Source of the DNA: a plasmid | Strand: one strand, 5' to 3' | Assembly (NCBI RefSeq): GCF_988243305.1 | Contig: NZ_OZ547138.1 | Length of the DNA: 64,000 bases | In this document: positions 2,985 to 59,734 of the stretch, one piece after another | Layout: every line of letters starts with the position of its first letter | How positions within the stretch are numbered: position 1 is the stretch's first letter | Notes under the pieces: generated by a model | What the model saw: only the letters and a program-made list of their open reading frames with translations | What the model was told of the DNA's origin: nothing | The model's database searches: none | Program-made: the position numbers and the translations under genes

Positions 2985-3422
2985 CTAATTCATCCAGAGG
3001 ATGACGTGATCGGGGATCACTGACGGAAGTGTGATGGAAAGCGCTCTGCCGGCAGTGTCCAGCAGTCGGCCGTTTTCCACCCTGCCGAGCAGAGCAGAGT
3101 CATTACACTGTTCCCTGAGCGCGGCCATCAGGCCCGGGGTTTCTGTAGCCCAGACAAAAACACGTTGCTGGCTGATGATATGACTGACGGTATCCGTCCC
3201 GGGAATCCCGAGCTGAGTGGATGTCAGCCGCCCTCCGGCTGTCCGTCGTTCCGGATGCTGATGCAGGTAATCATTGATGGCGTTCATATAACGAATGAAC
3301 GTTGCTGCCTGTTGTGTATTTTCTGCGGCCTGATGACGGTGTTCGCTGCGGGAGAGCTGACTGGTGAACCAGAAATTGCCTGTGGTCGTGATGACCATGA
3401 TGAACACGATGAACCAGCCCAT
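2985..3422 (-). CDS. pilM: Thin-pilus protein PilM
   Basis: 145-aa ORF with an N-terminal TM segment, 4 nt downstream of pilL. Size and position are as in R64 pilM. Confidence 0.75.
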   Translation of the reverse strand: MGWFIVFIMVITTTGNFWFTSQLSRSEHRHQAAENTQQAATFIRYMNAINDYLHQHPERRTAGGRLTSTQLGIPGTDTVSHIISQQRVFVWATETPGLMAALREQCNDSALLGRVENGRLLDTAGRALSITLPSVIPDHVILWMN

Positions 3423-3426
3423 AAGG

Positions 3427-4497
3427 TTATTCCTGTGGACGATCTGTCACCCGCAGCAGACATTGTGCTGTGCTGGTCCGGGCATACAGCGGTTTTTCCA
3501 CCGGGGTGTAGAGTGCGAAGAGCTGTTCCAGCGCCTGGCGGAAACTGCCGGTGAAAACCAGAGGGGCATCGATGCTGTAGTTGACAGGTGTTTCCCAGCG
3601 TAGCGTCCAGGTGCCGTGGGGGCATTTTTCGGATGATGTCCAGCGGGCCAGTCCGTCTTTCAGGGTGGTCCCTTTTTCCATTTTCCACTGCCGTGGCGGT
3701 ATGACCTTCTGCGGTGGTGGCACTACCGGTTTCGTGGCCACCGGGGCTGGCGTGGTTGTTCTGCTCTCTGGTGTTCCGGATGTCCCGGTGGTGGTCTGAG
3801 CCCGGGAAACGCTGACGGCAGGTGTCACTGGTGTCGGGCCTGCCGGCGTTGCGGTGCTGCCCCTGAACGGATTACGCGGTGTATCAGCAGCTTTCTGTGA
3901 ACCCTGCGGTGCCGTGACGTCGACCGGCGGTGTTGCAGAGGTCGTGACAGTCAGTATTTTCCTGTTCCAGTCCATATGTCCGTAAAGCTGCTGGCCGGCC
4001 AGCAGCGCATTCAGTGCCCGGTGCCACTGGTCATTAACGGACCAGACGGGGAGGCGTTTGTTCAGTGCCGGTATGGCAGCGTTCTGTTGCCGGAACTGCC
4101 AGCCGGGTGGCAGCAACGGGCGTATCCAGTCACTGACGGAGCGCTGACGTGCCTCACGTAAATAAACGACGGATGACTGACCGGGTTTACCGGTCATAAC
4201 CAGTGCGGGCAGCTGTGTGGCCTGAAGGAGCGGGCGGGGAGGCAGTGCGGTACTCTGGCTGCTGACTGCGGTTGTGGGCGTCGCTGTTGTTGTCGGGCGG
4301 GGCGGCGTCACAGGGCGGGTCACCGGTGGCGGAAGCAGACGTTTTTGCGTATGGGCGATAATGGCAGCGCTTTCGCGAATTTGTCCGTCGACGAACACCA
4401 GAGCCGGAGGCGTGGTGTCAGGAACAGGCGTGGCATTAAAGGCCGTACAGCCGCTGAGTAATGACGGCAGAAGGAGTGTAAGTGATTTCTTTTTCAT
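3427..4497 (-). CDS. pilL: Thin-pilus lipoprotein PilL
   Basis: 356-aa ORF with lipobox LLSGC and Pro/Thr-rich linkers. It is the first gene of the pilL-O run. Confidence 0.8.
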   Translation of the reverse strand: MKKKSLTLLLPSLLSGCTAFNATPVPDTTPPALVFVDGQIRESAAIIAHTQKRLLPPPVTRPVTPPRPTTTATPTTAVSSQSTALPPRPLLQATQLPALVMTGKPGQSSVVYLREARQRSVSDWIRPLLPPGWQFRQQNAAIPALNKRLPVWSVNDQWHRALNALLAGQQLYGHMDWNRKILTVTTSATPPVDVTAPQGSQKAADTPRNPFRGSTATPAGPTPVTPAVSVSRAQTTTGTSGTPESRTTTPAPVATKPVVPPPQKVIPPRQWKMEKGTTLKDGLARWTSSEKCPHGTWTLRWETPVNYSIDAPLVFTGSFRQALEQLFALYTPVEKPLYARTSTAQCLLRVTDRPQE

Positions 4498-6434: not shown

Positions 6435-8129
6435 TTAAACCTGTTGTGGTTCTGAGTTATCCGGAGCGGTTACCGGTTCGCTGACATCCGGAACCTTTTC
6501 CGGGGCAGGCATGACCAGTGGACGTGTCAGGGCTGTAAGTCCTTCACCGGATAAACCCACCTCTTTCAGCAGGGAGTCGATGAGCGGAGCCTGTGTACGG
6601 TAAGCCAGAGCGGCGGTTACTGCCTGTTCAGCGAGATTTCCGCCACTTATGTCGGTTGTTGCTGTTTTACCGCGGGTAACACCGCCATTCAGACCATCCA
6701 CCTGAATGATTTTAATACCGTCAATGGATTTCATTGGTTCTGTGGACTTCTCTATGACGGCAGGTAATGCATCCAGCAGGGCAAGACGGAAGCGGAGGCT
6801 GGTCTGCTCATCCGAAAGCACGTTAATGGCATCGTTCAGTGCGCGCTGTGCTTCTGCTTCTGCCAGACCTTTCTGACGGGTGGCCTCCGCCAGTTCAATA
6901 ATTGCTGCTGCCTGGAGTTCGGCTGCTTCTTTTTCAGCCTGTGCGCGAACCGTCAGTTCAACCGCTTTCGTTTCAGCTTCCTGAGCAGCAGCAATCAGGG
7001 CAACCTGTTTGGTACGGTCGGCCTCCGCAGTCTGGCGGGTGGTTTCCACATCCTGCTGGGCCTGTACGGCCTCAGCCAGTGCTTTACTTGCCCGGGCTTC
7101 TGCCTGTGACTGCTCTTCCGATTTTGCCGCCACGGCAATGGCTCTGGCCTGGCTGGCGATTTCGGTTGCCTGCTGTTGCTCAATTTCCCGTATGGCCACT
7201 TCCCGTTCGGCTTCGACCTGGCGGGTACGCACTATCTGCTGTCGTTCGATTTCGGCTTCCTCTATCTTACGTTCAGCCAGAATTCGCGCGGATTCTGCTT
7301 CACGACGTCGTTCAGCTTCAATAGCAGCAATACTGGCACTCTGCTCTGCCGTACGGGTTTTTACCCGTTGTTGTTGCTCCAGAGTCATGAAGGCTTCCTG
7401 CTGTTCAATCTCCAGACGTCGGGAGAGTGCATCCCGGTTTTTTTCCCTGATGGCCACTTCAACATCCTGCTCAACTTCGTTGCGTTCGCGGCGACGACGT
7501 TCTGTTTCCTGGGTCAGAAGGGTCAGGCCTTCAGCATCAAAGGCATTGTCAGGATTAAAATGTACCCGTGCAGTCTGGTTGAAACTTGTCAGCGACACAC
7601 TTTCAAGCTCCAGACCGTTTTTGGATAAGTCTTCCGCAACGGTGTTCTGCACACCCTGAACAAAGTTCTCGCGGGCATCCTGTAAATCCTGCATGCTCAT
7701 TCTGGCCGCCGTGGCCCGTAGGGCATCAACAAATTTATCCTCGACCAGACTACGCAGATCTTCAGGTGTGAGCGTGCGTTGTCCCAGCGTCTGGGCTGCA
7801 GTGGATATTCCTTCGGCTGATGGTTTTACCCGAAGAAAAAAGGCAACGGCAACATCAACACGCATACGGTCGCGGGTTATGAGACTTTCAGCCGCTGCAC
7901 GACTGACTTCCAGCTTCAGGGTGTTCATGTTGACGGGAATTGTTTCGTGAAAAATGGGCATAACAATTGCACCGCCACTCATTACCACTTTTTGGCCTCC
8001 CAGACCTGTGCGGACAAAGGCCTGCTCTGCCGATGCCCGGCGGTACAGGCGGGCAAATATCAGCCCGATAACGAACAGGGTGAGGACCAGCGCTATAACG
8101 GTAAACAACCATCCCGGAAGATTAAACAT
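6435..8129 (-). CDS. yqiK: SPFH/flotillin-family membrane protein (YqiK-like)
   Basis: 564-aa ORF with an N-terminal TM, an SPFH-like region, then a long Ala/Glu/Gln/Arg-rich coiled coil. Size and organisation match E. coli YqiK (about 553 aa), and it is paired with a YqiJ-like gene upstream. Confidence 0.85.
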   Translation of the reverse strand: MFNLPGWLFTVIALVLTLFVIGLIFARLYRRASAEQAFVRTGLGGQKVVMSGGAIVMPIFHETIPVNMNTLKLEVSRAAAESLITRDRMRVDVAVAFFLRVKPSAEGISTAAQTLGQRTLTPEDLRSLVEDKFVDALRATAARMSMQDLQDARENFVQGVQNTVAEDLSKNGLELESVSLTSFNQTARVHFNPDNAFDAEGLTLLTQETERRRRERNEVEQDVEVAIREKNRDALSRRLEIEQQEAFMTLEQQQRVKTRTAEQSASIAAIEAERRREAESARILAERKIEEAEIERQQIVRTRQVEAEREVAIREIEQQQATEIASQARAIAVAAKSEEQSQAEARASKALAEAVQAQQDVETTRQTAEADRTKQVALIAAAQEAETKAVELTVRAQAEKEAAELQAAAIIELAEATRQKGLAEAEAQRALNDAINVLSDEQTSLRFRLALLDALPAVIEKSTEPMKSIDGIKIIQVDGLNGGVTRGKTATTDISGGNLAEQAVTAALAYRTQAPLIDSLLKEVGLSGEGLTALTRPLVMPAPEKVPDVSEPVTAPDNSEPQQV

Positions 8130-8155
8130 AGTGAGAACCTCTGTATATGTCGGGA

Positions 8156-8776
8156 TTAAAGAACATCCGGCCAGGGATTCAGTTCGCCCAGCCAGCGGGA
8201 ACCGGAAAGACGGCAGACAATAATCACTTTGTCTCCTCGTCTGAATTCTTTCCCGGCCTCCGGCTCCAGCAACAGGTAATGAACCTGCCCGAAGCGGTCT
8301 GTGAAGCGACCTTCACAGGGGGAACCCGCCACTGCGTGATAACCAGTGATGGTGGCCATACAGCCGATGAATGCCTCCTCGGTGAGCGCCGTTGTTTCAT
8401 CACGGGGTAACCAGGGGGCAATCAGTCTGCCGGTGCGGTGTACGAGAGGACATGTCAGCAGCAGGCAAAGTGGTGCAAGGAGAATGTTCGGGGCAGGAGC
8501 CTGCAGCAGATGAATAATAAGACCCTGCAGGAGAATGCCGGATATACCAAAAAAACCTGCCAGCATACAGAGGACGATCAGCAGGGGGATCCGTCCGATG
8601 TTCAGCCAGTCCAACGCCTCTCCTGTCAGACCCTCCGGTAAATCAGGTGTATCCATAGCTGAAGAGAGGGAGTGTCCGCAGAGCAGGGCGATAAGTTCAG
8701 CGATACCAGTAAGCAGAACAAAAGTCAGGGCTGCCAGATAGGGTGCGTTATACGCGGTAAGTAACGTCAGTGTCAT
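8156..8776 (-). CDS. yqiJ: NfeD-like inner membrane protein (YqiJ-like)
   Basis: 206-aa ORF with 3-4 TM segments followed by a soluble C-terminal beta domain. It lies 27 nt upstream of the flotillin gene, the classic NfeD-SPFH operon arrangement. Confidence 0.75.
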   Translation of the reverse strand: MTLTLLTAYNAPYLAALTFVLLTGIAELIALLCGHSLSSAMDTPDLPEGLTGEALDWLNIGRIPLLIVLCMLAGFFGISGILLQGLIIHLLQAPAPNILLAPLCLLLTCPLVHRTGRLIAPWLPRDETTALTEEAFIGCMATITGYHAVAGSPCEGRFTDRFGQVHYLLLEPEAGKEFRRGDKVIIVCRLSGSRWLGELNPWPDVL

Positions 8777-9042: not shown

Positions 9043-9708
9043 TCAGTGTAACAGGTGATTGCTGTGATCTATGCCCCATTCGGCTTTCGGTAAACCTGAA
9101 TACCCCACATGAAGAATGCGTGACAGCATGTTTCTGCCGCTGCCGTTCAGGCTGCATTCGCGTCCGTGCGCGAGTATAAAACCTTCATCCCGGAATATCT
9201 CTTCCACTTCTGAAGATTCGAGGGATGCCGGATGAATTAATGAAAATGCCACCGGTCTGAGCATTCTGCCCGTGGTGGAAAAGGTGTCTCTGGTACTGTT
9301 CAGTTGCAGGATATGACGTTTACCTGTTTGCGCACGGGAAAGTGTCTCACTCAGCAGCTGGTCGCTCCATGCGCACGTGCCAATCTGCCATCCCAGACTC
9401 CTGCACGCGGCAAGAGCCGAGCGGAAGCGGTACAGGTCGTATAATGCTGCGTTATTGCCACTTTCCAGCAGTGATTTCAGGGTGTTTGCTACCGGTATGT
9501 CTGAATTGGTGGCCAGCAGTTTTCGCAGGGTAGTGAACTCTTCAGCCATTCCTCTGAACTCGCGCATCTGACGGGCAGTGTCAAGCCAGTTCAGCAGGTA
9601 ACGCCGGCGACGCCGTTCGTTGTTTATGTTGTCCGGGGCGGTGGAGAGTGCTTCGAGCATATTCTCCAGTAACAGAATGACAGGGTTTTCCTGGGATAGA
9701 ATGGTCAT
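9043..9708 (-). CDS. Hypothetical protein in the position of IncI1 transfer regulator TraC
   Basis: 221-aa ORF directly downstream of the NusG-like traB gene. The assignment is by position only; I do not recognise the sequence. Confidence 0.55.
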   Translation of the reverse strand: MTILSQENPVILLLENMLEALSTAPDNINNERRRRRYLLNWLDTARQMREFRGMAEEFTTLRKLLATNSDIPVANTLKSLLESGNNAALYDLYRFRSALAACRSLGWQIGTCAWSDQLLSETLSRAQTGKRHILQLNSTRDTFSTTGRMLRPVAFSLIHPASLESSEVEEIFRDEGFILAHGRECSLNGSGRNMLSRILHVGYSGLPKAEWGIDHSNHLLH

Positions 9709-9848: not shown

Positions 9849-10490
9849 TCATGTCAACGCTCCGTCATCAGATACCAGGTGCAGGAGCAGGGCGATCCTC
9901 GACTCCGGCAGAGGCTGTGCATCAAGCCGGAGGAGGTACTGGTAACGCGCTTTTGTCAGCCAGAGGGTGGAGGCAGCATCCAGCTCCTCCCTGGCTGCCG
10001 GATTGAGCGCAGGATCCGGGTACACTTTCATCAAAGACTGAACGATATCCTCCCTGACGGTTTTGATTTCACCGGCCATTTTCACGAAGTCCAGAAAGGC
10101 ACTGTGACGGCGAAGGTGAGTGAAGCTGTGGCTTTCGGGGTCTGCTTTCAGGAAAAAGTAACCGGGAAACACGGCGTGTATATGTCGACGGTAACCACAG
10201 ACTTTATCCGTGCGGCGGACCTTTTTCAGTATCAGGGGTGTCCAGGGAAGGACGTGTTGTTCGGAAAGCCAGGAAAAGAGATGTTCGCGGTTTTTGCCGG
10301 CAGGGATGTACTGTGCCAGATACCAGTTGCGTTGATGTAATTCACTGATATTCAAAATCCGGAACGCTCCGCGAAAATCGATCCCCGCAGGGGGGCTTCG
10401 ATGTTGTTGTGAACGGCGAATACATAAAGCATGTGTCGGAAACAGCGGCTGACCCACGTTCAGCCTGGCCTGCAGTTCTGACAGGCACAT
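9849..10490 (-). CDS. traB: NusG/RfaH-type transcription antiterminator TraB (IncI1 transfer regulator)
   Basis: The NGN-like core begins at NWYLAQYIPAGKNREHLFSWL, with a KOW-like tail. The true start may be TTG at 10355 (168 aa), because the 45-aa N-terminal extension has no NusG counterpart. Confidence 0.7.
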   Translation of the reverse strand: MCLSELQARLNVGQPLFPTHALCIRRSQQHRSPPAGIDFRGAFRILNISELHQRNWYLAQYIPAGKNREHLFSWLSEQHVLPWTPLILKKVRRTDKVCGYRRHIHAVFPGYFFLKADPESHSFTHLRRHSAFLDFVKMAGEIKTVREDIVQSLMKVYPDPALNPAAREELDAASTLWLTKARYQYLLRLDAQPLPESRIALLLHLVSDDGALT

Positions 10491-11029
10491 GATTTACGCA
10501 CTCTTGTAAGCCTTGTGGACGGTTTCGAGGCGGGCGAAAACCGACAACTCCTGCAAACAGGATTAATGGCTGAAAAATATATTACATAAGGATGTATCTG
10601 TGGCAAGAGTGAAGATAAGCAGTTGAATAGATCGTTATATTTGATAAGTCAGCATATTATTCTGATTTGTGTGCGGTGTCTGGAGGATTAGATCGTTTAA
10701 AAATTTTATGCGATCTCTTCTACTAAAAATGATGAAAAACACAGCATAAAAGATCGTTTGTGAAATTGTTCATTTTTTTGACAAAGTTCAAAAAAACGAC
10801 GCTTTTTAGGGGGTTAAAGAGGGCAACTGTAACCCTGAGAAATCGTGTCGGCTTTTCAAAGCGGTGGAAAAGGGGTATATTGCGGATCGTTATGCAGTGG
10901 CTTTTGGGATCCTCGCGGTTCGGAAAGCCAGAAAACGGCAGAATGCGCCATAAGGCATTCAGGATGTATGGCAGAAACGACGGCAGTTTGCCGGGGCCGG
11001 AAGGCTGAAAAAAGTTTCAGAAGGCCATA

Positions 11030-11100
11030 AAGGAAAACCCCCACTATCTTTCCTCGAACTTTGGCGGGCTCGTGAAAGATAGTAGGGGCGTTCACAGAAT
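11030..11100 (-). ncRNA. inc: Inc antisense RNA (RNAI-type copy-number control), approximate ends
   Basis: It is complementary to the strong leader stem-loop at 11038-11088, whose loop carries GGCG (11063-11066). This lies upstream of repY/repZ, the IncI1/IncB control architecture. Ends were not determined. Confidence 0.5.
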
Positions 11101-11115
11101 ACGGGATAAGTATAT

Positions 11116-11205
11116 ATGAAACCGTACCAGAGATTCAACCCTGTGCAGTGTATAAATACACGGCACAATCGCTCCGCCATAAGCGACAGCTTGTGGCAGG
11201 TCTGA
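11116..11205 (+). CDS. repY: repZ leader peptide RepY (29 aa)
   Basis: ATG at 11116 gives MKPYQRFNPVQCINTRHNRSAISDSLWQV followed by a stop. The 29 codons match the published RepY length, and the stop TGA (11203-11205) overlaps the start region of repZ. Confidence 0.8.
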   Translation: MKPYQRFNPVQCINTRHNRSAISDSLWQV

Positions 11206-12224
11206 AGAATACTTCATATAACGCAGTACACTGGAGTCAGTTAGCACCCGAAGAGCAGATCCGTTTCTGGGAAGACTATGAAGCGGGAAGGGCGACCACT
11301 TTCCTGGTTGAACCGGAAAGGAAGCGCACGAAGCGCCGTCGCGGTGAGCACTCCACCAAACCCAAATGCGAAAATCCGTCCTGGTATCGTCCGGAGCGCT
11401 ATAAGGCGCTGAGCGGGCAGCTCGGGCACGCCTACAACCGTCTGGTGAAAAAGGACCCGGTGACCGGCGAGCAGAGCCTGCGCATGCACATGTCTCTGCA
11501 TCCTTTTTACGTGCAGAAACGAACGTATGCTGGTCGCAAATATGCTTTCCGTCCGGAAAAACAACGCCTCCTCGATACCGTCTGGCCGGTTCTGGTCAGC
11601 TTCAGTGATGCGGTCACACATACCGTAGGCATGAGTGTTTCCCGTCTGGCCAGAGAAATCAGCCCGAAAGACAGCAAGGGGAAGGTTATTCCGGAACTGG
11701 AAGTGACGGTCTCCCGCCTTTCCCGTTTGCTGGCCGAACAGGTACGTTTTGGTGTGCTGGGTGTTTCAGAGGAAACCCTGTGGGACCGTGAAACCCGCCA
11801 GCGTCTGCCACGTTACGTCTGGATAACACCGGCAGGCTGGCAGATGCTGGGCGTCGACATGGTGAAACTTCACGAACAGCAGCAGAAGCGGTTGCGTGAA
11901 AGTGAAATCCGCCAGCAACTCATCCGGGAAGGCGTACTGCGTGAGGATGAAGATATCTCCGTACATGCGGCCAGAAAACGCTGGTATCTGCAGCGCAGTC
12001 AGGATGCACTGAAACACCGTCGTGCGAAAGCAGCAGCCAGTAAGCGCGCCAGACGCCTGAAGAAACTGCCTGCCGACCAGCAGATTCATGAGATGGCAGA
12101 GTATCTCAGGAAGCGTCTGCCGCCGGATGAAGCCTATTTTTGTTCCGATGACCATCTGAAGCGACTGGCCATCAGGGAGTTGCGTCAGCTTGAACTGACG
12201 CTGGCTGCCCCGCCACCGCACTAG
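11193..12224 (+). CDS. repZ: Replication initiator RepZ (IncFII-RepA superfamily, I-complex)
   Basis: A GTG at 11193 inside the end of repY gives 343 aa, the ColIb-P9 RepZ length. CGCC at 11175-11178 can pair with the leader loop GGCG (pseudoknot). The track start at 11148 is an alternative. Confidence 0.85.
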   Translation: MAGLKNTSYNAVHWSQLAPEEQIRFWEDYEAGRATTFLVEPERKRTKRRRGEHSTKPKCENPSWYRPERYKALSGQLGHAYNRLVKKDPVTGEQSLRMHMSLHPFYVQKRTYAGRKYAFRPEKQRLLDTVWPVLVSFSDAVTHTVGMSVSRLAREISPKDSKGKVIPELEVTVSRLSRLLAEQVRFGVLGVSEETLWDRETRQRLPRYVWITPAGWQMLGVDMVKLHEQQQKRLRESEIRQQLIREGVLREDEDISVHAARKRWYLQRSQDALKHRRAKAAASKRARRLKKLPADQQIHEMAEYLRKRLPPDEAYFCSDDHLKRLAIRELRQLELTLAAPPPH

Positions 12225-31168: not shown

Positions 31169-31294
31169 TATAGCCTCATATTAAGCTGTTAAGTTAACAA
31201 CTTAATATTGCCATCTGAACACGAACCATGCAATTATTTTTGTTATGTTAACAACTTAGTAAGTTGTTAAGTATTTGATTTATAGATTAATTAA

Positions 31295-31358
31295 GATAAC
31301 AAGACAACAAGATAACAAGATAACAAGATAACAAGATAACAAGATAACAAGATAACAA
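31295..31358 (+). repeat. Eight tandem 8-bp GATAACAA iterons upstream of parA
   Basis: The units are contiguous from 31295 to 31358; the second is GACAACAA. They sit between the impB stop and the parA promoter region, which also carries gttaacaactta repeats. Confidence 0.8.
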
Positions 31359-34978: not shown

Positions 34979-35038
34979 GGGGAACGGGCACCACAGGGGT
35001 GCCCTCCCGGTGTCCTCTGTAAGAGAAGGAGCGTTGTT

Positions 35039-35722
35039 ATGTCCCGTTTTGTCCTCGGTAACTGCATCGATGTTATGGCCCGTATTCCTGATAACGCCAT
35101 TGATTTCATACTGACTGACCCGCCGTACCTCGTCGGTTTTCGTGACCGTTTCGGGCGCACCATCGCTGGCGATAAAACCGATGAATGGCTGCAACCGGCC
35201 TGTAATGAAATGTACCGCGTACTCAAAAAAGACGCGCTGATGGTGAGCTTCTACGGCTGGAACCGCGTCGATCGCTTTATGGCCGCCTGGAAAAATGCGG
35301 GATTCAGCGTTGTTGGTCACCTGGTCTTCACCAAAAACTACACATCGAAGGCCGCATATGTGGGCTATCGCCACGAATGCGCCTACATCCTGGCAAAAGG
35401 CCGTCCACGTCTGCCACAAAACCCGCTGCCGGACGTGCTGGGCTGGAAATATTCGGGCAATCGTCATCACCCGACGGAAAAGCCCGTTACCAGCCTGCAA
35501 CCGCTGATTGAGAGCTTCACACACCCGAACGCAATTGTGCTGGACCCGTTTGCAGGCAGCGGCTCAACCTGCGTCGCTGCCCTCCAGTCCGGACGCCGGT
35601 ATATCGGTATCGAGCTGCTTGAGCAGTATCACCGTGCCGGGCAGCAACGCCTTGCCGCCGTGCAACGGGCCATGCAGCAGGGGGCCGCGAATGATGACTG
35701 GTTTATGCCGGAGGCTGCGTAA
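35039..35722 (+). CDS. Orphan DNA N6-adenine/N4-cytosine methyltransferase (leading region)
   Basis: 227 aa with a DPPY motif (ILTDPPYLVG) and a C-terminal SAM-binding motif (VLDPFAGSGSTCVAA), the beta-class order. No restriction partner is nearby. Confidence 0.88.
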   Translation: MSRFVLGNCIDVMARIPDNAIDFILTDPPYLVGFRDRFGRTIAGDKTDEWLQPACNEMYRVLKKDALMVSFYGWNRVDRFMAAWKNAGFSVVGHLVFTKNYTSKAAYVGYRHECAYILAKGRPRLPQNPLPDVLGWKYSGNRHHPTEKPVTSLQPLIESFTHPNAIVLDPFAGSGSTCVAALQSGRRYIGIELLEQYHRAGQQRLAAVQRAMQQGAANDDWFMPEAA

Positions 35723-35944
35723 ATGAACTATGCCGGACACGAAAAACTGCGCGCCGACGTGGCGGAGGTGGCCAATGCCATGTGCGACCTGCGTACAACC
35801 ATGAATGAGATGGAGCAGCGGTACAGCTTTAATGCCGACACCCTGCCGGAACGTCTGGTGCGTCAGACGCTGTTTCGCGCAAACCGCCTCCTGATGGAGG
35901 CATATACCGAAATTCTTGAACTGGATGCGTGCTTCAAAGATTAA
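35723..35944 (+). CDS. Hypothetical 73-aa protein
   Basis: The ATG abuts the methyltransferase stop. Predicted helical. Unknown function. Confidence 0.55.
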   Translation: MNYAGHEKLRADVAEVANAMCDLRTTMNEMEQRYSFNADTLPERLVRQTLFRANRLLMEAYTEILELDACFKD

Positions 35945-49931: not shown

Positions 49932-50048
49932 TTTCTCTCTGTTTTATGTTGAAGCCTGATTTTATCACCAAAACTGCCTCCTGGCAGGGCTGCGCCCTGC
50001 CTCTGCCGTCTGCATAAGACTATGATGCACAAAAATAACAGGCTATAA

Positions 50049-58854: not shown

Positions 58855-59734
58855 GGCTCTGTTGCAAAGATTGGCGGCAGTCAGAGGTAGGCTGTCGCTC
58901 TGCGCCGATCAGGCGGCTGCTGCGAAATGGTGGTTGAGCATGCCCATGGCCTCCGTCAGCGCCGAGGGCCCAATGCCAAAAGCTCTCTCCACAAGGCGCA
59001 CCTCGCCCCTGATGCCGGGCTGCAGGCACCAGGGGCGAGCCTGTCCTTTGCGCAGGGCTCGCATGACTTCGAATCCCTTGATCGTGGCATAGGCCGTGGG
59101 GATCGATTTGAAACCGCGCACCGGCTTGATCAGTATCTTGAGCTTTCCGTGATCGGCCTCGATCACGTTATTGAGATACTTCACCTGCCGGTGGGCCGTC
59201 TCCCGGTCCAGCTTTCCTTCGCGCTTCAATTCGGTGATCGCTGCACCATAGCTCGGCGCTTTGTCGGTATTGAGCGTGGCAGGCTTTTCCCAGTGCTTCA
59301 GGCCTCGCAGGGCCTTGCCCAGGAACCGCTTCGCTGCCTTGGCGCTGCGGGTCGGCGACAGGTAGAAATCGATCGTGTCGCCCCGCTTGTCGACTGCCCG
59401 GTACAGGTAGGTCCACTTGCCCCGCACCTTGACGTAGGTTTCATCCAGGCGCCAGCTCGGATCAAAGCCACGCCGCCAGAACCAGCGCAGCCGCTTCTCC
59501 ATCTCCGGGGCGTAGCACTGGACCCAGCGATAGATCGTCGTATGGTCGACCGAAATGCCGCGTTCCGCCAGCATTTCCTCAAGGTCGCGATAGCTGATCG
59601 GATAGCGACAATACCAGCGCACCGCCCACAGGATCACATCACCCTGGAAATGGCGCCACTTGAAATCCGTCATCGTTCCGTCCGTCCAATCTCCGCCAAG
59701 CATGCTCAAGCTTCACGATTTTTGCAACAGAGCC
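58855..59734 (-). mobile_element. IS6100 (880 bp)
   Basis: IRs GGCTCTGTTGCAAA at 58855-58868 and its complement at 59721-59734. The length is exactly 880 bp. Confidence 0.95.
58909..59673 (-). CDS. IS6100 transposase
   Basis: 254 aa from MTDFKWRHFQGDVILWAVRWYCRYPISYRDLEEML (IS6 family). The track start at 59709 is 12 codons too long. Confidence 0.93.
   Translation of the reverse strand: MTDFKWRHFQGDVILWAVRWYCRYPISYRDLEEMLAERGISVDHTTIYRWVQCYAPEMEKRLRWFWRRGFDPSWRLDETYVKVRGKWTYLYRAVDKRGDTIDFYLSPTRSAKAAKRFLGKALRGLKHWEKPATLNTDKAPSYGAAITELKREGKLDRETAHRQVKYLNNVIEADHGKLKILIKPVRGFKSIPTAYATIKGFEVMRALRKGQARPWCLQPGIRGEVRLVERAFGIGPSALTEAMGMLNHHFAAAA

Follow-up and report, generated by a model that had tools for sequence, protein, structure and literature searches.

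The stretch of DNA analyzed here (the window) comprises 64,000 nucleotides of a plasmid (contig NZ_OZ547138.1 of NCBI RefSeq assembly GCF_988243305.1), and our subject is a group of GATC-containing boxes in the gap between the conjugative transfer gene traB, on the minus strand, and the replication control region, on the plus strand. Positions 10480 to 10860 were 100% identical to E. coli plasmid p1-S1-KEN-03-A, which is typed as IncI-gamma/K1, MOBP, and MPF_I, and the window was collinear with the record of that plasmid, with 99.98% identity over the 50 kb compared. The window is part of an IncI-gamma/K1 plasmid of the I-complex. Its transfer regulators were arranged in the I-complex manner, with a NusG-type traB and the adjacent traC divergent to repY/repZ with the Inc RNA and pseudoknot. 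According to the list of open reading frames (ORFs) and to how the 100%-identical record and relatives are annotated, traB (9849 to 10490, minus strand) encodes a NusG-family transfer activator and is the presumed regulated gene. A traC-like gene (9043 to 9708, minus strand), assigned from the ORF list and annotation, lies 3' of traB in the same presumed operon. In published work, TraB was needed for transfer or pil gene expression in pESBL, pMS7163B, and pESI. On the replication side, an Rfam search matched the known PK-repZ pseudoknot and Inc RNA at 11030 to 11180 of the plus strand (173.9 bits) and nothing in the box array; the RepA/RepZ gene ends at 12224 on the plus strand. The AT-rich character of the gap, noted in a preliminary description of this DNA, was borne out by a G+C content of 31% versus 53% for the whole window. 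As that description also stated, positions 10491 to 10760 hold no ORF of 60 or more amino acids on the traB strand. The only ORFs there were of 35 and 48 amino acids. The traA gene that lies upstream of traB in IncI1 (pESBL) is missing from this plasmid.

The octamer AGATCGTT occurred on the plus strand at 10629 to 10636 (box 1), 10690 to 10697 (box 2), and 10751 to 10758 (box 3), each time as an exact match and exactly 61 bp from start to start, as first reported, and nowhere else in the 64 kb. Box 1 is associated with the extended 15-mer CAGTTGAATAGATCG (10620 to 10634), box 2 stands in the context gATTAGATCGTTTAAAa, and box 3 in the context CAGCATAAAAGATCGTTTG, whose left half, CAGCATA, is a perfect Lrp half-site. 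The fourth GATC of the preliminary description was confirmed at 10712 to 10715 and belonged to an inverted copy of the box (GCGATCT, or AGATCGC on the other strand), which reads TGCGATCTCTTCTAC on the plus strand at 10709 to 10723, is oriented to the minus strand, and lies between box 2 (21 bp away) and box 3 (40 bp away). Four GATCs were thus present within 126 bp of AT-rich DNA and, with two further ones at 10885 and 10908, six within about 280 bp. The number of octamers was ordinary, with about 2 expected in the window and at least 3 found in 31 of 100 shuffles. Equally spaced triples of any 8-mer (spacing of 12 to 150 bp) were seen in the window only here and in a true 8-bp tandem repeat at 31293, and each of three null models gave any such triple in just 2 of 300 shuffles. 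The arrangement of the boxes is not due to chance. Tandem Repeats Finder reported no repeat at the box region, and the similarity between box copies reached only about 12 nt; a decayed 61-bp tandem duplication was therefore rejected.

Conservation was examined in 45 distinct traB-rep intergenic sequences, which came from plasmid records sampled across identity bands and from 55 TraB-encoding metagenome contigs. A scan of species-representative genomes returned no TraB relatives. Three GATCG motifs at exactly 61 and 61 bp were kept in 40 of the 45 relatives. Variants per column averaged 0.38 in the 24 box columns and 0.25 in the four GATC tetramers, in comparison with 9.0 and 4.6 in the two spacers and 2.94 in the whole noncoding stretch. 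When three 8-column blocks were placed at 61-bp spacing in all 226 possible positions, the true placement and its overlapping neighbors came out on top (among the best 6). At the level of single boxes, TAGATCGTT of box 1 was invariant across nine plasmid sequences including IncI1, ATTAGATCGT of box 2 was invariant in the 45 relatives, the GATC of the inverted box was invariant in 45 of 45 and in IncI1, and box 3 was almost invariant. The preliminary description had pointed to close relatives as one comparison on which its interpretation hung; since the boxes and their spacing were retained while the spacers diverged, that interpretation survives the comparison. The boxes and their spacing are under purifying selection.

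The array was also followed into more distant plasmids. IncI1 (pESBL), whose TraB is approximately 65% identical, keeps the inverted GATC, TAGATCGTT at box 1, and, 62 bp from the latter, GATCGT at box 2; it carries extra GATCs besides these. In pCFSAN057252, whose TraB is 56% identical, a perfect Lrp consensus has six GATCs around it within 135 bp, with a TTAGATCGTT box among them. Two lineages with TraB of 51 to 52% identity were less clear, one of them having TCACAGATCGTTTAAAG, a 14/17 match to the pap box described below. In one lineage, the IncFIB plus IncI-gamma/K1 plasmids of enterohemorrhagic E. coli O145/O26 type, box 2 was amplified, with TAGATCG two or three times in tandem; the alignment of two such sequences (L002, positions 3240 to 3290, and L009) to window positions 10686 to 10712 showed that the tandem adds GATCs 7 bp apart and that box 3 is displaced by 7 bp in L002. 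Between box 3 and the replication promoter, an A/T palindrome, TCATTTTTTTGA-N6-TCAAAAAAACGA (10770 to 10799; inverted repeat I10), had 26 of 30 columns invariant and stands at the edge of the tra-linked module that faces rep. Both IncI1 and the pESI-like plasmids retain it, as TTTTTTTGACGCAGGTCAAG in the corresponding position. A CRP-like site at 10759 to 10774 was not conserved in relatives and was dropped.

The boxes closely resembled the GATC boxes of the pap family of adhesin switches. The 17 bp common to both pap GATC sites (Lrp sites 2 and 5) read TAAAAGATCGTYTAAAT (structural paper on Dam, PMC4417163), and AGATCGTT is the core of this box. Box 1 matched it at 12 of 17 positions, boxes 2 and 3 at 13 each, and the inverted box, in reverse orientation, at 12. 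Among the 376 oriented GATC sites of the window, these four took the two best scores and two of the next three; an unrelated site at 3441 also scored 12. Box 3 had 13 contiguous matches (TAAAAGATCGTTT). As a positive control, the pef regulatory region of pSLT was scored in the same way, and its two experimentally studied boxes, inverted as in pap and 102 bp apart, gave 13 and 12. A short-word BLAST comparison with the pef region gave the two pef boxes as its two best matches, in the same order and orientation (TGCGATCTcTTCTAC, 14/15, and ATAAAAGATCG, 11/11): the inverted box differed from the pef GATC-II box TGCGATCTTTTCTAC at a single position of 15, and ATAAAAGATCG of box 3 reproduced the pef GATC-I box exactly. 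As nothing of note beyond the two boxes matched, extended homology between the two regions was rejected. A search of genome contigs with the 17-bp pap box was uninformative, giving, among the matches listed, scattered single sites in unrelated AT-rich genomes and no pap-like locus. On sequence criteria, the three motifs are real, strongly conserved copies of the pap/pef-type GATC box.

A second line of evidence concerned Lrp. The SELEX (systematic evolution of ligands by exponential enrichment) consensus of E. coli Lrp is YAGHAWATTWTDCTR, and a second published consensus is AGAATwwwATTCT (quoted in PMC5554404). Between boxes 1 and 2, at 10650 to 10664, we found the predicted Lrp site CAGCATATTATTCTG, which matches YAGHAWATTWTDCTR at 15 of 15 positions and is the only perfect match in the window. 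Any perfect match occurred in 48 of 2000 locally shuffled windows, and about 7e-4 matches would be expected in an AT-rich stretch of the size of the array by our calculation. The 45 relatives showed 15 sequence variants of the site; 27 relatives had 0 mismatches to the consensus, 16 had 1, and 2 had 2. Variants per column amounted to 1.0 at the nine fixed positions and 11.3 at the six degenerate ones, which is the pattern expected if the specificity of Lrp itself is the constraint. The site was also perfect in IncI1, in pESI-like plasmids, and in pCFSAN057252, and the B/O-type and IncI1 versions (CAGAATATTATTCTG/A) fit AGAATwwwATTCT as well.

Lrp-like sequence extended over the boxes themselves. 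The 15-mers bearing them start with the Lrp half-site YAG (CAGTTGAATAGATCG for box 1, CAGCATAAAAGATCG for box 3, and TAGTAGAAGAGATCG on the other strand for the inverted box). Taken with the perfect Lrp site, the 15-mer centers fell at 10627, 10657, 10688, 10718, and 10749, in steps of 30, 31, 30, and 31 bp. In pap, two sets of three Lrp sites, spaced about three helical turns apart, are bound cooperatively by Lrp. The preliminary description had taken 61 bp as about 6 helical turns; it corresponds to 5.8 turns and is better read as two steps of approximately 30.5 bp in an Lrp array, and in such a model the 61-bp spacing would arise because the direct boxes occupy alternate positions. Two weaker Lrp-like sites were noted on the traB side. 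A conserved palindrome, CAGGATTAATGGCTG (CAG-N9-CTG; 10558 to 10572), with 4 mismatches and 14 of 15 columns invariant, lies 62 bp from the box 1 15-mer and would span +1 to +15 of the predicted transcript, and a site with 2 mismatches at 10570 to 10584 overlaps the predicted -10 element.

These positions refer to a sigma-70 promoter toward traB that was predicted by a consensus scan on the minus strand at 10579 to 10606, with a -35 element TTGCCA (10606 to 10601), a 16-nt spacer, and a -10 element TAATAT (10584 to 10579). The -35 element was invariant in the 45 relatives, and the aligned IncI1 sequence reads TTGTAG, 16 nt, TAGAAT. Relative to the predicted start, the centers of the sites would lie at about -60 (box 1), -85 (Lrp site), -121 (box 2), -141 (inverted box), and -182 (box 3). 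The perfect Lrp consensus, which is conserved across lineages, would thus stand about 85 bp upstream of the start. A promoter in the opposite direction, the predicted rep promoter, was placed at 10853 to 10881 on the plus strand (TTTTCA, 17 nt, TATATT); it is a neighbor outside the module, with GGATCGTTAT at about +1. This motif (10884 to 10893) is found in the K/B/O/Z/I-gamma type, and IncI1 has AGATCGTT 7 nt upstream of its -35 element (3176 to 3183 of L003, our extract of pESBL, NC_018659.1 33000 to 37700); the motif positions at the rep promoter are not common to the two groups.

Comparison with other plasmids indicated which gene the module serves. Salmonella megaplasmids of the pESI type, whose replicon is IncFIB, retain the module in its IncI1 form beside traA-traB-traC. 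An I-complex rep gene is absent from the vicinity, and homology breaks off shortly before the predicted rep promoter. This assigns the module to the tra side, with linkage to the tra genes and not to rep. IncI1 has a duplicated promoter-leader segment (L003 1630 to 1930 and 2690 to 2980; window counterpart 10340 to 10640), of which one copy abuts traB and the other lies upstream of Hft and traA; the GATC/Lrp array follows only the latter. According to the published cascade, TraA activates traB, and an array behind the upstream, traA-side copy fits this order. The traA/Hft block looks like an insertion accompanied by duplication of the promoter-leader segment. Both diverged copies include the conserved GCAGTTCTGAC. 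In IncI1, the spacer of the predicted tra-side promoter (L003 2927 to 2938; TTGTAG, 16 nt, TAGAAT) holds two GATCs, and four further GATCs lie at L003 3010, 3029, 3051, and 3072, 19 to 22 bp apart. In plasmid coordinates (NC_018659.1), GATCs of this IncI1 region stand at 35926, 35934, 35966, 36009, 36028, 36050, and 36071. The start of traB itself is ambiguous, being annotated at ATG 10490 (213 amino acids) in some records and at TTG 10355 (168 amino acids) in others. TraB of IncI1 has 177 amino acids, the NusG N-terminal domain starts near residue 55, and the true start may be TTG 10355. The 135-nt stretch from 10355 to 10490 is conserved as DNA even where traB does not follow and, for this reason, may be leader rather than coding sequence.

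Altogether, as far as the sequence tells, the array probably serves a large family of resistance plasmids as a control region for conjugation at which Lrp acts in a methylation-sensitive manner. With moderate confidence we favor the reading that the boxes are pap-type Lrp/Dam GATC sites in a conserved control region, about 200 bp long, upstream of a transfer-activator operon and acting on its promoter; this operon would be traB-traC here and traA-traB-traC in IncI1. The array is pap-like in its parts, not in its architecture. Host Lrp would nucleate at the perfect consensus site (10650 to 10664) and would spread cooperatively over the weaker neighboring sites 30 to 31 bp apart, with the direct GATC boxes forming alternate positions of the Lrp array. 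The weaker sites contain GATC, and whether they are occupied should therefore depend on Dam methylation. Dam methylation and Lrp binding would be mutually antagonistic, as in pap, and bound Lrp would shield the GATCs from Dam. Transcription of traB, and hence conjugation competence, would then be tied to nutrition, through the level of Lrp, and to the past methylation of the plasmid copy, including the hemimethylated state after replication or conjugative entry. We infer Lrp binding, methylation sensitivity, and the position of the promoter from the sequence. The earlier suggestion of phased regulator sites or a methylation-sensitive switch on the transfer genes thus gains support from conservation, from identity to the pap/pef box, from the perfect Lrp consensus, and from linkage to the tra genes instead of rep. 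Among the binders then proposed, Lrp is upheld by the consensus site between boxes 1 and 2, and we found no evidence supporting TraB or TraC.

Several observations weigh against this reading. It rests on sequence, with Lrp binding, undermethylation, and the effect on traB all predicted, and the promoter, with its start inferred near 10572, is likewise a prediction. The region is AT-rich and so are the pap box and the Lrp consensus, which raises the chance of fortuitous similarity. The architecture departs from pap, with three direct boxes at 61 bp and one inverted box here versus one inverted pair at 102 to 103 bp there. No PapI/PefI or PapB/PefB homologue was present in the roughly 114 kb searched: PefI and PefB queries (tblastn and phmmer) found none in the window (lowest E value, 0.2) or in positions 50001 to 100000 of the collinear record (0.47), positions 100001 to 115029 (about 15 kb) lying outside the search. 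The 30.5-bp lattice is a post hoc reading that fits IncI1 and not the 56%-identity lineage (by the pCFSAN057252 coordinates); it is therefore a model and not a result. The GATC of box 1 is missing in 4 of the 45 relatives, IncI1 has no GATC at the aligned box 3 position, and over 1 kb separates the IncI1 array from traB. In published work, control of traA and traB is assigned to the Hft region and a 54-bp element, and this stretch is not mentioned. The pESI plasmid has the module in its IncI1 form, and deletion of lrp there caused no significant change in pilV mRNA as measured by bulk quantitative reverse transcription-PCR, with data not shown (PMC5013300).

Among other explanations, a different sequence-specific protein might bind (T)AGATCGT(T), or TAGATCGTT, with the GATC incidental and methylation playing no role; TraC, a TraA-like or small plasmid protein, or a nucleoid complex of H-NS/Hha or IHF would be candidates. 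We regard this as unlikely but worth serious consideration, since the conserved core exceeds GATC (ATTAGATCGT and AAAGATCGTTTG are invariant), an island of 31% G+C is typical H-NS territory, IncI1 regulation already involves the plasmid-specific elements TraA and Hft, and the pESI lrp mutant showed no significant pilV change, as just mentioned. However, such a protein would leave unexplained both the match to the pap/pef box and a perfect Lrp consensus whose variation tracks its degeneracy, and the consensus sequences of IHF and DnaA were unmatched by inspection. The module is kept with TraB of 56 to 65% identity, in plasmids with and without traA, and a coevolving plasmid-specific binder is therefore less likely than a conserved host factor. 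Sequestration by SeqA, in which hemimethylated GATCs would shut the divergent traB promoter, the rep promoter, or both after replication or entry, as at oriC and the dnaA promoter, appeared quite unlikely. A GATC spacing of approximately 19 to 22 bp suits SeqA, and the GATC density noted above (four within 126 bp, six within about 280 bp), the pair at 10691 and 10712 (21 bp, or two helical turns, apart), and in IncI1 the 19- to 22-bp series together with the GATCs at L003 2927 and 2935 in the predicted promoter spacer would agree with it. Yet SeqA needs only GATC, so that the conserved flanks (AGATCGTT and the similarity to the pap box) and the Lrp consensus go unexplained, as does the exact 61-bp spacing, which is too wide for a SeqA pair; denser GATC clusters exist elsewhere in the window, such as 5 in 130 bp at 59080.

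The array could instead be an upstream element of the repY/repZ promoter that, for example, couples copy number to methylation state. It lies 95 to 225 bp upstream of the predicted rep -35 element at 10853, the related motif GGATCGTTAT occurs at the predicted rep start, IncI1 has AGATCGTT directly upstream of its rep -35 element, and Hft insertions nearby approximately doubled the copy number of pESBL in published work. The pESI-like plasmids nevertheless keep the array with traA-traB-traC and without an adjacent I-complex rep, with homology ending before the rep promoter, and the rep-proximal motifs are not conserved between K-type and I1-type plasmids, which makes this role improbable. Minimal I-complex replicons are not known to need sequence upstream of the rep promoter, which also counts against it. 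Readings of the region as an oriC-like 13-mer (GATCTnTTnTTTT), a DnaA box, or an IHF site were dropped, because the matches by eye were weak and the I-complex origin lies downstream of rep. A chance recurrence or a neutral relic of a decayed duplication, with no function, would find some room in the ordinary octamer count and in the fact that, with many windows scanned, a chance of about 0.7% per window is sometimes met. It is very improbable given that the boxes and spacing are conserved beside diverged spacers, that the repeat persists in lineages with TraB of 56 to 65% identity, and that Tandem Repeats Finder detected no tandem-repeat ancestry.

The Lrp/Dam reading can be placed beside the systems already known. 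With the pap family (pap, pef, fae, daa, sfa, and clp), the module shares the box sequence and a high-quality predicted Lrp site. Further points in common would be GATCs inside AT-rich, Lrp-like sites, for which Lrp sites 2 and 5 of pap are the published precedent, and several such putative sites at intervals of about three helical turns ahead of a sigma-70 promoter, which is a predicted one here. Apart from box number and spacing, it differs in that this plasmid has no fimbrial operon and no PapI/PapB homologue that was found, that the gene controlled would be a NusG-type transfer activator, and that the divergent neighbor is the replication control region. The conjugation regulator gene traJ of pSLT, the F-like virulence plasmid of Salmonella, offers a parallel of another kind, with Dam known from published work to repress it. 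Like traJ, the module would combine host Lrp and Dam upstream of the promoter of a positive conjugation regulator, at the level of sequence here, and we propose that methylation after replication determines, as at traJ, which plasmid copies can express the regulator. Lrp at pSLT traJ and the strand-specific details of hemimethylation were reportedly described by Camacho and Casadesus in 2002 and 2005. Unlike the module, pSLT has a single GATC in another context (ATGTTGATCTATAAAA) and no phased triple; the regulators (TraJ versus the NusG-like TraB) and the transfer systems (MPF_F versus MPF_I) also differ. The traJ GATC was rejected as a pap-type box by its sequence context.

Hft of IncI1 pESBL and R64-drd11, which sets the transfer frequency according to published work, is likewise a cis-acting, noncoding control region between the tra regulators and rep in the I-complex. 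It is a different piece of DNA: Hft occupies NC_018659.1 35394 to 35663 (L003 2395 to 2664), beside traA, and the module lies at approximately L003 2920 to 3080. Identity with the published Hft locus was rejected, as the coordinates are disjoint and both Hft and traA are absent from this plasmid. The SeqA clusters (at oriC and at the dnaA promoter) and the OxyR/Dam switches (agn43 and opvAB) resemble the module, as proposed, in that a DNA-binding protein responds to the methylation of several GATCs near a promoter. They differ in needing GATC only (SeqA) or OxyR half-sites, whereas the flanks here are of the pap/Lrp type and no OxyR-like motif was noticed.

Three features elsewhere in the window were noted. 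At 6435 to 8776, 3' of traC, an OB-fold (NfeD-like) gene and a flotillin-family gene occupy the place where IncI1 has pilI and the remaining pil genes. In the leading region, at about 35031 to 35714 (NZ_CP145695.1 23884 to 24567), an annotated DNA methylase gene may be related to the single-strand-specific M.EcoGIX of pESBL. The 8-bp tandem repeat at 31293 to 31358 (AAGATAAC; 8.2 copies, 96% matches) lies beside genes for a ParA-family protein and a Y-family polymerase and may be a partition (centromere-like) site.

The module was present in about 2,000 of 72,556 sequenced plasmids, namely, 546 records of the K/B/O/Z/I-gamma type and 1,450 of the IncI1 type, including the pESI-like megaplasmids. 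The carrier plasmids are major carriers of extended-spectrum beta-lactamase and AmpC genes in E. coli, Salmonella, and Shigella. The control of their transfer is poorly understood: the transfer genes are mostly off, and fresh transconjugants are briefly hyperfertile. In the papers examined, it was addressed only by work on Hft, TraA, and TraB in pESBL and on TraB and FNR in pESI. In those on I-complex transfer control, we found TraA, TraB, TraC, Hft, and FNR described and no Lrp or Dam control, Lrp sites, or GATC boxes. Control by Lrp and Dam is already known for adhesin switches and traJ; pap-type boxes in a new architecture before a NusG-type conjugation activator, in about 2,000 resistance plasmids, would be new. 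The Lrp/Dam reading names specific bases to mutate and is directly checkable against existing methylome data. 

If the reading is correct, a host Lrp/Dam input atop the cascade would link plasmid spread to the nutrient state and to the history of replication and transfer. A bolder extension, which we put forward tentatively and hold to be rather doubtful, is that the I-complex plasmids (IncI1, IncK, IncB/O, IncZ, IncI-gamma, and pESI-like) carry an epigenetic ON/OFF switch for conjugation built from the pap-type boxes and Lrp. In that case, the methylation pattern inherited by each plasmid copy would decide traB expression, and only a subpopulation would be transfer proficient. PapI uses an ACGATC element, and since the direct boxes contain ACGATC, chromosomal PapI-family proteins of extraintestinal pathogenic E. 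coli or Salmonella could, on this view, cross-regulate plasmid transfer. The un- or hemimethylated state that follows single-strand entry would set the switch to ON for some generations, which would provide the long-missing mechanism behind the passing phase of high-frequency transfer ("epidemic spread") classically seen in newly infected ColI-type hosts.

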